Below are positions 27,000 to 33,110 of a DNA stretch of 45,609 nucleotides, one piece after another (within the stretch, counting starts at the first letter, position 1; each line of letters begins with the position of its first letter). The position numbers and the translations under genes were made by a program. This stretch comes from a phage. The notes under the pieces were generated by a model. The model saw only the letters and a program-made list of their open reading frames with translations, ran no database searches and had not been told where the DNA came from. Location: NCBI GenBank assembly GCA_030873995.1, contig GCA_030873995.1_4701.1, one strand, 5' to 3'.

Positions 27000-27686
27000 C
27001 CAAAGGTGGTCACAAAGTAACCAAAGTCAAAATTTTGATGTAGGCGTGTGTGAGGTGTCTCGCCCTCGCCCTCGCCGGGTTGTCCCCATAGGGTGGCCTG
27101 AGGGAATCCGTCTTCGACGGGCAGGGCTGATGTACTCCTTGCCTAGTACAAGGGAGGCGGAGTGAACGCCTGGGACGGCCTAGGGAATGGCTTAGTGGTG
27201 GACAAGGTGATTACCTTAGTGAAGCCTCTTAGTGCATTCCTTAGGCCATTCAGGGCGTTTATGAGGTATTGACAGGGTGGATGGGTGTGGGCTATCTGTT
27301 CGTTTCGCTACGCTTCACTCACTGCTCCTCACTTCGTTCGTCGCTGCGGTAGCCTGATGTGTACCTTAGGTTATTACTTGATGGATAGCTTAGGTTAGCC
27401 TTAGTGGATTACCTTAGTTAAAGCCTTAGTGCTTCACTTAGTATCAGCTTAGTAGTGTACCTTAGTCAGACTTAGTGTCTTCTCTTAGTGATTGCATAGC
27501 TAAAGCTATAAGATGCAAATAGGTCGCGGTCGGTAGACCGCTAAAGAAAGAGAATGGTAATAAGATGCAGTAGGAGGAACACCAGAAACCTAGCCAACCT
27601 AAGCTATCCTAGCTCTATATCTATTGCTTTTCCTTAGTCTAACACGTTAGACAACCTATCTTATTCTTAGTGATGGTAACTTAGTG

Positions 27687-27715
27687 TTGACAAGATAATC
27701 TTAGTGTAATACTAT
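27687..27715 (+). promoter_or_regulatory. sigma70-type early promoter candidate
   Basis: TTGACA, 17-bp spacer, TACTAT; first strong host-type promoter after the repeat-rich terminal region. Confidence 0.55.
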
Positions 27716-27787
27716 GCATCACGTAGGCGGTGCTGAGGCACCTAGTAGCCAGCTAGTAAGGCATACGAAGAGACTAGCGCTTACATT

Positions 27788-27800
27788 GCTCTTTAACAAT
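27788..27800 (+). promoter_or_regulatory. rrn-type boxA element (copy 1)
   Basis: GCTCTTTAACAAT identical to the rrn boxA core; about 65 nt after the predicted start of promoter 27687. Confidence 0.6.
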
Positions 27801-27858
27801 TTGCTTAGTGTAACCTATGTATGCCGTGGTTAATTACTTATTGAATGAGGTATTAACT

Positions 27859-28038
27859 ATGACATTAAACAACCGTGAACTATCCGTTCTCTTCACTCTG
27901 TTGTGCTACATGATTCGTAACAACGAATTGCTTACAGACGATGAGTTAGCCTTGTATCACCGCTTTCTTAACGAAGGTTGGACCGATACAGTTAATCAAT
28001 ACCGTAACATGATAGATGAGTTGAGGGAGGGTAAATAA
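27859..28038 (+). CDS. early hypothetical protein (59 aa)
   Basis: First ORF after a sigma70-like promoter and boxA; TGAGGT RBS. Confidence 0.5.
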   Translation: MTLNNRELSVLFTLLCYMIRNNELLTDDELALYHRFLNEGWTDTVNQYRNMIDELREGK

Positions 28039-28262
28039 TGTATCAACATGAGGTATTCTTTGAATCAGCTAGCGAAGCTATTCGCTTCCGTGATGATATG
28101 ATGCAAGCTGGTGTAGGCGTTGATGTGTATCACTATTTGATAGATTACGACACTGAATATCACCGAGTTACCTTAGTATCTGAGTATGACAACCAAGTCA
28201 TTACTGAGTATCTAGGCAGTGAAGATTACGATTACGATGAAGTAATCACGACAAATCTCTAA
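28038..28262 (+). CDS. early, highly acidic hypothetical protein (74 aa)
   Basis: TAATG coupling to the upstream ORF; GGAGGG RBS; 17 Asp/Glu against 3 Arg. Confidence 0.55.
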   Translation: MYQHEVFFESASEAIRFRDDMMQAGVGVDVYHYLIDYDTEYHRVTLVSEYDNQVITEYLGSEDYDYDEVITTNL

Positions 28263-28270
28263 ATTAACTG

Positions 28271-28299
28271 TTGACAGCCACGGCATACAAGGTTACATT
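28271..28299 (+). promoter_or_regulatory. sigma70-type early promoter candidate 2
   Basis: TTGACA, 17-bp spacer, TACATT. Confidence 0.4.
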
Positions 28300-28332
28300 A
28301 AGCATCAAGACGGCGACGTCTTTAAACATCCC

Positions 28333-28345
28333 GCTCTTTAACAAT
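28333..28345 (+). promoter_or_regulatory. rrn-type boxA element (copy 2)
   Basis: GCTCTTTAACAAT; preceded by hairpin AGACGGCGACGTCT (28308..28321). Confidence 0.6.
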
Positions 28346-28391
28346 ACGGTTTGTGTCTTGATAGGCTAACTAACTAACTAAGGTAATTATC

Positions 28392-28502
28392 ATGAAAGGT
28401 TTAATTTGTGTAGAACGTATGATCAATGGTAAACTTGAAATATTACCACTGGAAAACCAATCTAGCTTCAAAGAGTGGTATGGCTGTTTCTCACTGATTT
28501 AA
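28392..28502 (+). CDS. possible tiny ORF (36 aa) between the second and third boxA
   Basis: ATG with AAGGT upstream; no other support. Confidence 0.2.
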   Translation: MKGLICVERMINGKLEILPLENQSSFKEWYGCFSLI

Positions 28503-28544
28503 AGTAAAGGCTGGCACTAGTCAGCCTATCAAGGCGCAAACCAA

Positions 28545-28557
28545 GCTCTTTAACAAT
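28545..28557 (+). promoter_or_regulatory. rrn-type boxA element (copy 3)
   Basis: GCTCTTTAACAAT; preceded by hairpin AGGCTG-8nt-CAGCCT (28509..28528); upstream of ocr. Confidence 0.6.
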
Positions 28558-28653
28558 TTAGATGGTAGCTTCTTAGTCTGGATAGGTTAAACCTAGGGTA
28601 TTCTTTTGAGTACCCTATAATGTAACCTAACTAACTAAATGAGGATTAATAAC

Positions 28654-29013
28654 ATGGCTATGTCTAATATGACTTACTCTCAGGTTTACAACAACGCTCA
28701 TGCTGCATTAGTTGAACGTATCTGGAATGATGCTATTGATTGTATTGATAACGCACATGATGCAATCCATGATGTGGCGGATAGTGCTGTACCAATCTAT
28801 TATGCTGACATCTTCTCCGTGATGGCGAGTGAAGGAATTGATCATTTCTTCGAAGACTCCGGCCTGATGCCAGACACTAAGGATGTAACGGTAGTATTGC
28901 AAGCCCGTATCTATGAGCAACTCACAATTGATCTATGGGAACGTGTTCAGTATATGATTGTTGAATACATCAACTCCGCCGAATATTTAGAAGAAGAAGA
29001 AGAGGAAGAATAA
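28654..29013 (+). CDS. ocr: Ocr (T7 gp0.3) DNA-mimic anti-restriction protein
   Basis: MAMSNMTY...[49 protein letters not shown] closely matches T7 Ocr as recalled; poly-Glu tail; GAGGA RBS. Confidence 0.9.
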
Positions 29014-29014
29014 G

Positions 29015-29128
29015 ATGGAAAAGCTATACAACTTTATCTTTTCAGACGGTGTAACCCTGAAGTGTTCCCTACGATTCGCACAAATTCGTGAGGAAGTACT
29101 AGGCACTACATACAAACTATTTAGCTGA
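29015..29128 (+). CDS. small ORF (37 aa) directly after ocr
   Basis: ATG 2 nt after the ocr stop; no homology recognised. Confidence 0.35.
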   Translation: MEKLYNFIFSDGVTLKCSLRFAQIREEVLGTTYKLFS

Positions 29129-29141
29129 CACTATAAGAGAA
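29119..29141 (+). promoter_or_regulatory. variant phage-RNAP promoter candidate with A at +1
   Basis: ATTTAGCTGACACTATAAGAGAA; three mismatches at -12 to -10; lies in the early region upstream of the RNAP gene. Confidence 0.4.
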
Positions 29142-29204
29142 GGCTTAACAAGGCGTTGCTACGGTAGCGCCTGATTAAACTTTCACTTACTAGGAGTTAA
29201 GACT

Positions 29205-29432
29205 ATGGATTTAGATAGCATCATTATGGCATTTGCTCTTATTGGCTTAAGCTGGTGCTCCTATCACCTTTACCGTGAGTTCTTATTTGATAAAGCTAAA
29301 CGCAAACTAAGAAAGGAAGGCGGTAATTACCTTTGTGTAAGAGGTGGGCTTGTAGAATACATTGCACCTAACGGCACGGAATGCGCCATTAGCAAAGATG
29401 CATTTATAGAAACGTGGCATTACATCAAGTAA
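29205..29432 (+). CDS. early small membrane protein (75 aa)
   Basis: AGGAG RBS; N-terminal TM helix IIMAFALIGLSWCSY. Confidence 0.55.
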   Translation: MDLDSIIMAFALIGLSWCSYHLYREFLFDKAKRKLRKEGGNYLCVRGGLVEYIAPNGTECAISKDAFIETWHYIK

Positions 29433-29495
29433 CTAGCCTATAGCCTACCTGAGTGGGCTATGTGATATTTACTTACACTATATAAGGTGACTATT

Positions 29496-30419
29496 ATGAC
29501 TACTGAAAACACCCTCCTGTCTGTTCGTGAAGCTGCAACCGCTGAAATCAAGCAGCACTTAGACAATATCGGCACTTCTTACATCAAAGTTGGCGCTTGT
29601 CTGAATGAATTACGCGGTGATTTCGAAGGTCAAAAAGACTTTTTAGCTTATGTAGAATCAGAGTTTGGCATCAAGAAAGCACAATGCTACAAGCTGATGA
29701 GTGTAGCCCGTGTCTTTGAAGGAGACGAACGCTTTAAAGGTGTGGCTATGCGTGTAATGCTGGCGCTTGTTCCTTTCGCTGATGAAAATATAATCATGGA
29801 GAAGGCCGCAGAACTCGCCGCAGCTGGCAAGCTGGACACTAATGCCGTAAATGCCCTGATTGATCCTAAGAAAGAGACAAAGGCCGAGACGGTACAATCT
29901 AAGGCTGAGACAGTAAAACCGCAGGAGAACGCGACTGAGGCCGCAGAAACTATGCAAGGACATGCAACCTTTGAGGATTTCATCTTAGAGAAGGCGAAGG
30001 AGGAGTTACAAAGTGTGCCGCCAGTAAGTGAGTCGGGTAACGACGAATCCGCACCGTGGGAAGATGAAAGCAAGCCGGAAGGCACAAAGGCAGCACCGCT
30101 GGATAACACGGTTAATACCGAAAACGCCGCTATTGCTGGTCTGCTGGCACAAATTAAAGCACTGACCGAGCAATTACAGGCAGCTAATGACCGCATTGCC
30201 TCCTTAAGCAGCGCACGCGAAAGCAAGAAAGCAGCCGCGCCTATGCTGCCGCAATTCAAATCTTCCTGCTTCTATGCTCGCTTAGGTTTAAGCGCTGAGG
30301 AGGCAACGAAGAAAACAGCAGTTAACAAGGCACGCCGCGAACTGGTTAAGCTAGGCTACGGCGAAGGCCATGAAGCATGGCCCTTAATCTCTGAGGCAGT
30401 AGAAGAATTAACTAAGTAA
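29496..30419 (+). CDS. early protein of unknown function (307 aa) immediately upstream of the RNAP gene
   Basis: AAGGTG RBS; Ala/Glu-rich low-complexity middle; occupies the T7 gene 0.7 position but has no kinase motifs. Confidence 0.6.
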   Translation: MTTENTLLSVREAATAEIKQHLDNIGTSYIKVGACLNELRGDFEGQKDFLAYVESEFGIKKAQCYKLMSVARVFEGDERFKGVAMRVMLALVPFADENIIMEKAAELAAAGKLDTNAVNALIDPKKETKAETVQSKAETVKPQENATEAAETMQGHATFEDFILEKAKEELQSVPPVSESGNDESAPWEDESKPEGTKAAPLDNTVNTENAAIAGLLAQIKALTEQLQAANDRIASLSSARESKKAAAPMLPQFKSSCFYARLGLSAEEATKKTAVNKARRELVKLGYGEGHEAWPLISEAVEELTK

Positions 30420-30482
30420 CCTTATCGGTGGCATCTTCTTAGGTGTCACCTATTAAGGTTTCTTTCACTAGGAGTAAACAAG

Positions 30483-33110
30483 ATGCAAGACCTACACGCT
30501 ATTCAACTTCAACTTGAAGAAGAAATGTTTAACGGAGGTATCCGTCGCTTTGAAGCGGACCAACAACGCCAGATTGCATCCGGTAATGAATCCGACACGG
30601 CATGGAATCGCCGCTTATTGTCTGAGTTAATCGCGCCAATGGCTGAAGGCATTCAGGCATACAAGGAAGAGTATGAAGGTAAAAGAGGCCGTGCACCGCG
30701 TGCATTAGCTTTCATTAACTGCGTAGAAAACGAAGTGGCAGCATATATCACGATGAAAATCGTTATGGATATGCTGAACACGGATGTAACCTTGCAGGCT
30801 ATAGCCATGAATGTAGCTGACCGCATTGAGGACCAAGTACGTTTTAGCAAGCTGGAAGGTCACGCCGCCAAATACTTTGAGAAAGTTAAGAAGTCACTTA
30901 AGGCAAGTAAGACTAAATCATATCGCCATGCGCACAACGTAGCGGTCGTGGCTGAGAAGTCAGTAGCTGACCGTGACGCTGATTTCTCTCGCTGGGAGGC
31001 GTGGCCTAAAGATACCTTGCTACAAATCGGTATGACCTTGCTAGAAATACTGGAAAATAGTGTATTCTTCAATGGTCAGCCTGTCTTTCTTCGCACCTTG
31101 CGCACTAATGGTGGCAAGCATGGCGTTTACTACTTACAGACTAGCGAACACGTGGGTGAATGGATAACTGCATTTAAAGAGCACGTAGCTCAGCTGAGTC
31201 CAGCCTATGCGCCTTGCGTTATTCCTCCTCGTCCGTGGGTTTCTCCGTTTAATGGTGGCTTCCATACCGAGAAAGTGGCGAGTCGTATTCGTCTGGTTAA
31301 AGGAAACCGCGAGCACGTCCGCAAGCTGACCAAAAAGCAAATGCCAGCGGTTTACAAGGCTGTTAACGCTTTGCAGGCGACTAAGTGGCAGGTTAATAAA
31401 GAGGTTTTGCAGGTAGTAGAGGACGTTATCCGTCTCGACCTTGGTTATGGTGTGCCTTCCTTTAAACCGCTCATCGACCGTGAGAACAAGCCAGCTAATC
31501 CAGTGCCGTTAGAGTTCCAGCACCTGCGAGGCCGTGAACTTAAAGAGATGCTAACGCCGGAACAATGGCAAGCCTTCATCAACTGGAAAGGCGAATGTAC
31601 CAAGCTGTATACCGCTGAAACTAAGCGCGGCAGCAAGTCGGCGGCAACCGTTCGTATGGTCGGGCAGGCCCGTAAATACAGCCAGTTTGACGCAATATAC
31701 TTCGTGTATGCACTGGATAGCCGTTCACGCGTTTATGCGCAATCTAGCACGCTCTCGCCGCAATCAAACGACTTAGGCAAGGCATTGCTCCGTTTTACCG
31801 AAGGGCAGCGTCTTGATAGCGCTGAGGCGCTTAAGTGGTTTTTGGTGAACGGGGCGAATAACTGGGGTTGGGATAAGAAAACTTTTGACGTGCGCACCTC
31901 TAACGTGCTGGATGGCGAATTTCAAGACATGTGCCGCGACATTGCAGCCGATCCGCTGACCTTCACTCAATGGGTAAATGCTGATTCCCCTTACGGCTTC
32001 CTTGCATGGTGCTTTGAATATGCGCGTTATCTGGATGCACTGGATGAAGGCACGCAAGACCAATTCATGACGCACCTACCCGTCCATCAAGACGGTAGTT
32101 GCTCTGGTATCCAGCACTATAGCGCGATGTTACGCGATGAAGTAGGTGCGAAAGCAGTAAACCTTAAGCCTTCTGACTTCCCTCAAGATATTTATGGCGC
32201 GGTTGCGCAGGTTGTTATCCAGAAGAATTACGCCTACATGAATGCAGACGATGCAGAGACTTTCACATCTGGAAGCGTCACACTTACAGGTGCAGAACTG
32301 CGTAGCATGGCTAGTGCGTGGGATATGATAGGAATAACTCGCGGATTGACCAAAAAGCCCGTAATGACACTACCTTATGGCAGCACACGTCTAACCTGCC
32401 GTGAATCAGTGATTGATTATATCGTTGATTTGGAAGAAAAAGAGGCCCAACGAGCTATTGCGGAAGGGCGTACCGCCAATCCTGTACACCCTTTTGATAA
32501 TGACCGTAAGGACAGCCTGACACCTAGCGCAGCTTATAACTATATGACAGCTTTAATCTGGCCTTCTATTTCGGAAGTGGTTAAAGCTCCTATAGTGGCA
32601 ATGAAAATGATTCGTCAGCTTGCCCGTTTCGCAGCTAAAAGGAATGAAGGCTTAGAGTATACCTTGCCTACTGGCTTCATCTTGCAACAAAAGATTATGG
32701 CTACTGATATGCTCCGCGTATCCACTTGCCTGATGGGAGAAATCAAGATGAGTCTACAGATTGAAACGGACGTAGTGGATGAAACGGCTATGATGGGCGC
32801 TGCTGCTCCTAACTTTGTGCATGGTCATGATGCCAGTCACCTTATCTTAACAGTCTGCGACCTTGTTGATAAAGGGATTACATCTATCGCAGTCATTCAT
32901 GATTCTTTCGGTACTCACGCAGGCCGTACAGCCGATCTTCGTGATAGCTTAAGGGCAGAAATGGTGAAGATGTATCAAGGCCGTAATGCCCTGCAAAGCC
33001 TGTTAGATGAGCATGAAGAACGCTGGTTAGTAGACACCGGAATCCAAGTGCCAGAGCAAGGAGAGTTTGACCTTAACGAAATCTTAGTATCTGACTATTG
33101 CTTCGCATAA
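30483..33110 (+). CDS. single-subunit DNA-dependent RNA polymerase (T7/SP6 type)
   Basis: 875 aa; [17 protein letters not shown] and HDSFGT catalytic motifs; C-terminus ends CFA. Confidence 0.95.

Follow-up and report, generated by a model that had tools for sequence, protein, structure and literature searches.

Three copies of a ribosomal RNA operon (rrn) type boxA lie in the early region of a phage genome, and long-range RNA helices begin immediately downstream of two of them. The genome is contig GCA_030873995.1_4701.1 of assembly GCA_030873995.1. All 45,609 nucleotides (nt) were analysed and this whole stretch is called the window. It is a circularly permuted Vectrevirus genome (K1-5/K1E group, SP6-like Autographiviridae), 97-98% identical to OZ035817 and K1-5 across the early region. 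The left end of the genome lies near 27300, and the three motifs fall inside the first 900 nt of the early region. We assign a probability of about 0.6 to the following reading. The motifs are genuine rrn-type boxAs on the early transcript that the host's RNA polymerase (RNAP) makes. Each would open a module, comprising boxA, 5' helix arm, payload, 3' arm and next boxA, that works by analogy with rrn operons.

An rrn boxA occurs three times on the early host transcript

The boxA copies and the promoters that frame them are:

27687-27715, + strand: P1, predicted early sigma70-type promoter, TTGACA-17-TACTAT (10/12 consensus; block kept in relatives)
27788-27800, + strand: boxA copy 1, GCTCTTTAACAAT, from a motif scan; 15-nt match to the rrnB leader boxA plus flank
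28271-28299, + strand: P2, predicted internal sigma70-type promoter, TTGACA-17-TACATT (10/12 consensus; inside the 3' arm of helix 1)
28333-28345, + strand: boxA copy 2, GCTCTTTAACAAT, from the motif scan
28545-28557, + strand: boxA copy 3, GCTCTTTAACAAT, from the motif scan; 15-nt match to the rrnB leader boxA plus flank
29127-29139, + strand: first SP6-type promoter for phage RNAP (core); transcription by host RNAP alone extends up to here

The original prediction, made from the sequence alone, identified the motif as the rrn boxA. This is borne out to the base. The 12-mer GCTCTTTAACAA is identical to the leader boxA of E. coli rrnB (L006:517-528). Copies 1 and 3 agree with the rrnB leader over 15 nt (GCTCTTTAACAATTT) and all three copies satisfy the rrn boxA consensus GCUCUUUAACAA. 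The spacer boxA of rrnB (L006:2523) differs from the 12-mer at one base.

The window contains exactly three exact matches to GCTCTTTAACAAT, all on the + strand. No further copies were found in the 45.6-kb window on either strand with up to two mismatches allowed. A frequency of the 13-mer expected by chance had been named in advance as the result that would count against the identification. We found exact matches in 0 of 100 dinucleotide-preserving shuffles of the window, against three observed. The idea that the motif recurs by chance, or through the composition of AT-rich phage DNA, has only the moderate A+T content of the motif in its favour. The copies share one strand, all fall within an 800-nt region, and the motif is kept to the base in every early region examined. 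A chance origin of the motif is excluded.

A scan for SP6-type phage promoters gave 12 matches in the window and none between the left end (~27300) and 29127-29139. Because all boxA copies are upstream of this first phage promoter, they lie in RNA made by host RNAP only. They are in the sense orientation, below predicted sigma70-like promoters. Both observations agree with the early host transcript first proposed. Promoters of this kind had been claimed ahead of two copies, and we find them before copies 1 and 2; the sigma70-like promoter scan found none belonging to copy 3. PMC5725501 gives the view that Nus factors are not used by T7 RNAP. In T7, boxA mutations make gp2 dispensable and boxA is described as an antitermination element (PMC3709561, citing Savalia et al. 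2010). This implies boxA-dependent, antiterminated transcription by the host enzyme.

Long-range helices begin immediately after boxA

The two helices and their payloads are:

27801-27832, + strand: helix 1, 5' arm (leader strand), 1 nt after boxA copy 1; inverted repeats I5 and I11, minimum free energy (MFE) fold, covariation
27859-28262, + strand: helix 1 payload, genes 1 and 2 (59 and 74 amino acids (aa)); phrog_9275 and phrog_6403, of unknown function
28275-28305, + strand: helix 1, 3' arm (trailer strand), ending at about the P2 transcript start; repeats, fold, covariation
28347-28367, + strand: helix 2, 5' arm (B-type, ggtttgtgtcttgataggct); inverted repeat I1, fold, covariation
28366-28377, + strand: three-frame stop CTAACTAACTAA (repeat family D15), just 5' of the Shine-Dalgarno sequence of the 36-aa open reading frame (ORF)
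28392-28502, + strand: helix 2 payload, 36-aa ORF MKGLICVERMINGKLEILPLENQSSFKEWYGCFSLI, with a good Shine-Dalgarno sequence; lacking from the K1-5 annotation
28523-28543, + strand: helix 2, 3' arm, ending 2 nt before boxA copy 3; repeats, fold, covariation

The MFE fold of the P1 transcript (27702-28660) contains both long-range helices and a local hairpin described below (z -6.9). In this fold the boxAs occupy linkers between strong helices; short-window folds show weak alternative pairings. For helix 1, a repeat finder recovered 27802-27829 as complementary to 28278-28304. The duplex has about 30 base pairs (bp), a free energy of -48.1 kcal/mol and a span of 443 nt. For helix 2, 28348-28372 is complementary to 28518-28542, giving about 20 bp, -40.7 kcal/mol and a span of 128-155 nt.

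Across phages, two frames recur. The first module of the window belongs to the A-type, in which an internal promoter, TTGACA-N17-TAnnnT, occupies the 3' arm. The position of TTGACA is constant in all A-type 3' arms, even in families whose arm sequences are unrelated (L033, L119, L088, L179). The second module has the B-type order: boxA, TCTGGYTNGTGTCTTGATAGGC, CTAACTAACTAA, Shine-Dalgarno sequence, one small ORF, GC hairpin, GCCTATCAAGGCAC and the next boxA. No promoter was found in B-type cassettes. We also considered whether helix 1 has, as its 5' arm, an inverted copy of P2 that acts as a leftward promoter. This was ruled out: the -35 position reads TAATTA and the scan gave no minus-strand promoter. 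The pattern of G-U pairs, which favours + sense RNA, further counters the idea.

Generality was assessed with annotated relatives and 158 IMG/VR loci from three motif scans. For each boxA, we searched for a partner of the following 36 nt within 1.2 kb; random 36-mers from the same loci served as the control. A partner at or below -40 kcal/mol was found for 44 of 207 distinct boxA contexts but for none of 496 random 36-mers. Where helices reached -33 kcal/mol or lower, the 3' arm ended 0-29 nt before the next boxA in 45 of 70 cases. The 5' arm begins 1-3 nt downstream of the phage boxA, compared with 0 nt in rrnB. Nine unrelated arm families averaged -46 kcal/mol with their own partners and -15 kcal/mol across partners.

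Covariation was measured on anchored, equal-length boxA-arm constructs. In 19 distinct B-type cassettes, 96.7% of cells were paired and 13 of 19 pairs had changed on both sides. The covariation score was 0.436, against 0.164 in shuffles, and 0 of 500 shuffles scored as high; slid registers were only 28-43% paired. In nine A-type cassettes, 96.6% of cells were paired, 14 of 26 pairs had changed on both sides and again 0 of 500 shuffles scored as high. As duplexes, the + sense RNAs were stabler than their - sense counterparts in 42 of 56 cassettes (Wilcoxon p ~3e-7, from sequences that are not independent). Such a bias would be expected if selection acted on the transcript and tolerated G-U pairs.

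The same geometry can be seen with other arms. In UTI89UKE2 (L007), the cassette at 1768-1926 has wholly different arms (tagagattaggcc... and ...gagtctaatctcta), with a boxA 0 nt away on both sides. Geometry is kept here though arm sequence differs. After the rrnB spacer boxA (L006 2523-2545) the sequence reads TCTGGAT, and many phage boxAs are followed by T(C/A/T)TGG(A/C/T)T. Examples are T3, the third SP6 copy and the B-type arms. Judged from these letters, the conserved flank may extend beyond the boxA 12-mer.

Two further candidates were set aside. The boxA-proximal arm of T7 pairs with the R0.5 region at only -29 kcal/mol, inside the range of the random control. Prophage-like contigs with boxA-like 12-mers have a different arrangement and are not used as support. 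At L062 (7745-8400) and about 20 IMG/VR prophage-like loci (L040, L041, L073, L081, L107, L109, L142, L143 and others), GCTCTTTAACAA is followed by TCTGGATATCC(C/A)CAAC. This pairs with GTTGTTGGGGATATCCAGAT 430-670 nt downstream, around variable payloads. The L062 unit is just past a gene for a CI/LexA-like repressor. It flanks a gene on the minus strand, and the terminator of that gene abuts the motif.

Upstream hairpins are heterogeneous

The original prediction placed a short hairpin ahead of each boxA. Three such hairpins are present:

27729-27742, + strand: leader hairpin GGTGC-TGAG-GCACC, 45 nt upstream of boxA copy 1; read from the sequence and seen in folds
28307-28322, + strand: GNRA-loop hairpin AAGACG-GCGA-CGTCTT, 10 nt upstream of boxA copy 2 in a boxB-like position; in the fold centroid
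28510-28525, + strand: end-of-cassette hairpin GCTGGC-ACTA-GTCAGC, 19 nt upstream of boxA copy 3, directly before the 3' arm of helix 2

They do not form one class. Taken as a whole, the leader (27722-27800) has a fold no stronger than that of shuffled sequence (z -0.03). Only the hairpin at 28307-28322 resembles the boxB-then-boxA order of rrn. It is conserved in Vectrevirus (with a GAGA loop in PSK8) and absent from SP6, BP12B and Koku. In K1E, a compensatory change has flipped the end-of-cassette stem (GCCAGC...GCTGGC). The hairpins exist, but the conserved partner of boxA is the covarying helix downstream and not the hairpin upstream.

The third module places a local hairpin before ocr

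The last module has a local hairpin like that of R0.3 in place of a long-range helix:

28569-28644, + strand: local 76-nt hairpin with lower stem, internal loop and 10-bp upper stem; free energy -32.1 kcal/mol, z -4.1
28654-29013, + strand: ocr, gene 0.3-like anti-restriction gene, the first gene past the last boxA

The hairpin is conserved in 11 phages and its upper stem covaries (GGGTA/TACCC, GGAGA/TCTCC, GGGCA/TGCCC). The lower stem includes the Shine-Dalgarno region of ocr. In T3, the annotated R0.3 site lies 29 nt past boxA. The hairpin after boxA copy 3 shares its position and layout with R0.3 of T7 and T3, a likeness in layout rather than demonstrated sequence homology.

These structures bear on what the helices might do. 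They could be real without being RNase III substrates, and serve instead in exonuclease protection or translation gating, with boxA acting as antiterminator only. The structures are well supported and cleavage is the step added to them; helix 2 is short for a substrate, and sequestration of the ocr Shine-Dalgarno region in the lower stem would suit gating. Even so, we consider this unlikely. The last hairpin is placed and laid out like R0.3, which is annotated in T7 and T3 as an RNase III site directly past boxA. The rrn helices, which have the same boxA geometry, are RNase III substrates (PMC10250234). The renewed boxA after every 3' arm is also most easily explained by cutting there.

A constant frame carries exchangeable early genes

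Within the B-type frame we found at least 16 families of payload that BLASTP does not relate to one another. In each, one ORF of 36-88 aa begins at a fixed offset. In ULINTec6 the frame is unchanged but holds another ORF. Further occurrences of the frame are in K30 (Studiervirinae), Gaspode (Corkvirinae), MR4 (Gajwadongvirus) and an unclassified Klebsiella phage. Gain and loss follow its borders. CC1 and PDP21P3 are exactly without the second module of the window; they are identical up to one boxA and then continue with the sequence that follows boxA copy 3. What close relatives have gained or lost is thus exactly one unit of boxA plus cassette. Since the frame is generic, small early genes could also be exchanged in it as cassettes. 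To express such interchangeable early genes, the phage seems to imitate how an rRNA operon is laid out.

The 36-aa ORF MKGLICVERMINGKLEILPLENQSSFKEWYGCFSLI has no PHROG match. A 36-aa homologue, MRGIICVERFINGRIVCCPIDTQWAYREWYGCFSLL, is encoded at IMG/VR locus L162 and, on this sequence comparison, the ORF is probably a real micro-protein. The three-frame stop CTAACTAACTAA has a second copy at 28627-28638, upstream of the ocr Shine-Dalgarno sequence, and many phages keep it in their B-type cassettes. By its position it resembles an insulator of translation built into the frame.

Such exchange raises the alternative that boxA copies and arms are mainly recombination joints, and that internal copies have no Nus-dependent role. 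The 16 unrelated ORF families carried by one frame, its spread over several Autographiviridae subfamilies (K30, MR4, Gaspode, KL01), the one-unit indel and the precedent of T4-like phages (PMC4122927) all speak for a joint. However, a joint does not need a base-perfect match to the host rrn boxA in phages of many hosts. Nor does it need + sense, G-U-tolerant covariation of fully diverged arms, and the single T7 copy has a genetic antitermination phenotype. We judge this account improbable. It fails only in its exclusive form; joint and Nus roles are compatible, and boxA probably serves as a joint as well as in the Nus role.

A different proposal concerns translation. The start codon lies ~60-110 nt downstream of each boxA, and Shine-Dalgarno occlusion mediated by boxA and the Nus complex is documented for E. 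coli suhB (PMC5725501). Hence, boxA could be a Nus-dependent repressor of the next gene that tunes early protein dose. Conversely, a strong helix arm and the three-frame stop separate boxA from the Shine-Dalgarno sequence. The conserved spacing is from boxA to helix, not from boxA to Shine-Dalgarno, and the T7 phenotype concerns read-through transcription. We rate repression a shade less probable than an exclusive joint.

Copy number is ordinary for the clade

Copies were counted in 22 annotated Autographiviridae early regions, allowing at most one mismatch. There is one boxA in T7, T3, Gaspode and P433.1. Two occur in Pm5460, PSK8, CC1, NTNC80A, Koku, BP12B, K30, MR4 and KL01. Three occur in K1-5, SP6, K1E, ACG-C91, ULINTec6, PDP21P3, UAB78 and phD2B, and five in UTI89UKE2. 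The suggestion that T7 has a single copy was correct: one identical boxA is present in T7 (L004:813) and one in T3 (L023:781), in each case between the A promoters and R0.3. Three copies had been called unusual. This is true only against T7 and T3; two to five copies are typical elsewhere, and three are therefore ordinary in the clade.

Some copies are decaying. In K1E (L003), the copy at 2238 has a 1-nt insertion (GCTCTTTTAACA). P433.1 (L013, ~1830) has lost its second copy. The last copy in SP6 (L002 1536), BP12B and UAB78 has one mismatch (GATCTTTAACAA or GTTCTTTAACAA).

A proposed mechanism

What the analysis shows is sequence, structure, geometry and modularity. Our preferred reading, in which boxA-headed modules work like rrn operons, draws on rrn and T7 precedents for Nus binding, antitermination (Rho resistance), tether-assisted helix formation and RNase III cleavage. 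Briefly, NusB/NusE(S10) would bind each boxA RNA and, with NusA, NusG and SuhB, turn host RNAP into a fast, Rho-resistant complex. With boxA bound, the 5' arm next to it would stay at the RNA exit channel and the payload would loop out, so that the helix closes as soon as the 3' arm emerges. RNase III would then cut the helix, releasing a discrete mRNA and severing the boxA tether. Loss of the tether at the proposed cut would account for the fresh boxA after every 3' arm. The P2 start, predicted at ~28306, would fall exactly at the end of helix 1, so P1-processed and P2-initiated RNAs would have nearly identical 5' ends ahead of boxA copy 2.

The rrn precedents are taken from PMC10250234. There, the leader-trailer helix, whose 5' strand contains boxC, is essential for biogenesis of the 30S subunit. 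In the model of the Wahl laboratory, NusB-bound boxA anchors the leader at the RNA exit channel while rRNA loops out. The leader-trailer helices are described as RNase III substrates.

Several points weigh against this reading. Helix 1 is confined to P1 read-through RNA, because P2 transcripts are without its 3' arm. At ~20 continuous bp, helix 2 is close to the minimum length generally given for substrates of RNase III. The cassettes were picked by a duplex-energy threshold and are mutually related; the counts of 0 in 500 shuffles are not probabilities, and the percentages paired (96.7 and 96.6%) are inflated because the cassettes were chosen by duplex energy. Nus factors may serve rRNA folding more than antitermination (PMC5725501). 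In PMC10250234, boxA mutations lower 30S activity by only 2-3 fold.

A wider proposal is that portable "mini-rrn operons" build the early regions of SP6-like and other Autographiviridae. This would combine tether, loop-out, RNase III excision, boxA reloading and boxA as recombination joint. We offer it tentatively, as possible but falling somewhat short of an even bet. If true, it would be the first case in nature of messenger RNA being looped and processed by the rrnTAC mechanism. In addition, boxA would double as a recombination joint for shuffling anti-host genes between phages. Antitermination by the T7 boxA and RNase III processing of T7 early RNA are already known. In the open-access literature we found no account of several boxAs that each head a covarying helix around early genes; the SP6 and K1-5 genome papers, which were outside this search, may mention multiple boxAs.

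Whether boxA and the Nus factors act on rRNA mainly as antiterminators or as an RNA-looping chaperone for long-range helices and RNase III processing is an active question. A phage cassette shares this geometry, measures 130-450 nt, carries a non-essential payload and comes in natural sequence variants; it would make a small, genetically tractable test bed. The frame points to a rule by which the T7 supergroup acquires and expresses small early genes, probably for host takeover or anti-defence. Annotators gain a sequence signature for such genes, including unannotated ones like the 36-aa ORF. For phage engineering, the frame offers a natural insulated expression cassette.

Other features of the early region

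Early ORFs with a PHROG match fall only in PHROGs of unknown function, and the comparison gave no match to an N-like protein among them. An Rfam scan of 27000-30600 with a permissive E-value returned only sub-threshold noise (miRNA and snoRNA models). From the left end to P1, positions 27355-27680 contain dense short direct repeats with (C/A)CTTAGT (families D2-D4, D10). The array is reminiscent of those beside terminal repeats in T7-group genomes. A terminator-like hairpin lies at 29439-29462 (TATAGCCTACCTGAGTGGGCTATG, then a weak T tract), past the first phage promoter in the interval between gene 5 and a 310-aa gene. It could be a weak terminator or an additional processing site.

Comparison with known systems

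Promoter-early stem-loop (PeSL) cassettes of T4-like phages are composite terminator/promoter motifs (PMC2839356, PMC4122927). The likeness is functional only: conserved regulatory motifs stand beside variable small early ORFs, at indel junctions between relatives. Unlike PeSL, the frame here is a boxA with a covarying helix that spans the payload, and there is no evident sequence relationship.

As in lambda nut, boxA is on an early phage transcript and would recruit host NusB/NusE. However, the motif has the full rrn consensus, of which the lambda version is shorter, and the hairpin-then-boxA order is rrn-like. After boxA comes a long helix arm, not a boxB hairpin, and an N-like protein was not identified.

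T7 and T3 share with the third module the order boxA, structured hairpin and ocr, the same 12-mer and transcription by host RNAP. Each has a single boxA, and the RNase III sites annotated in them are local hairpins. Conversely, the window has three boxAs, two of which head long-range helices around pre-ocr genes.

The closest parallel is E. coli rrn, with differences of content and scale. In place of rRNA, the phage modules carry small protein-coding ORFs (36-88 aa) or blocks of two genes. The phage helices have 20-30 bp, compared with ~40 in rrn, and the next boxA is 0-29 nt past the 3' arm, compared with ~270 nt in rrnB. The phage modules are without a conserved boxC sequence, and one phage 3' arm doubles as a promoter. 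Because the payloads are small ORFs and gave no Rfam hit, the element would work like the rrn system without being a member of it. Nevertheless, the layouts coincide. An identical boxA lies just below a strong sigma70 promoter and, in one case, follows a hairpin. The 5' strand of a long-range helix comes immediately after boxA and encloses the payload; in rrnB, the 16S leader-trailer helix (529-572 with 2206-2249, -57.9 kcal/mol) starts at the first nt after boxA. Finally, a second boxA stands past the first processed unit, as does the spacer boxA of rrn (L006:2523).

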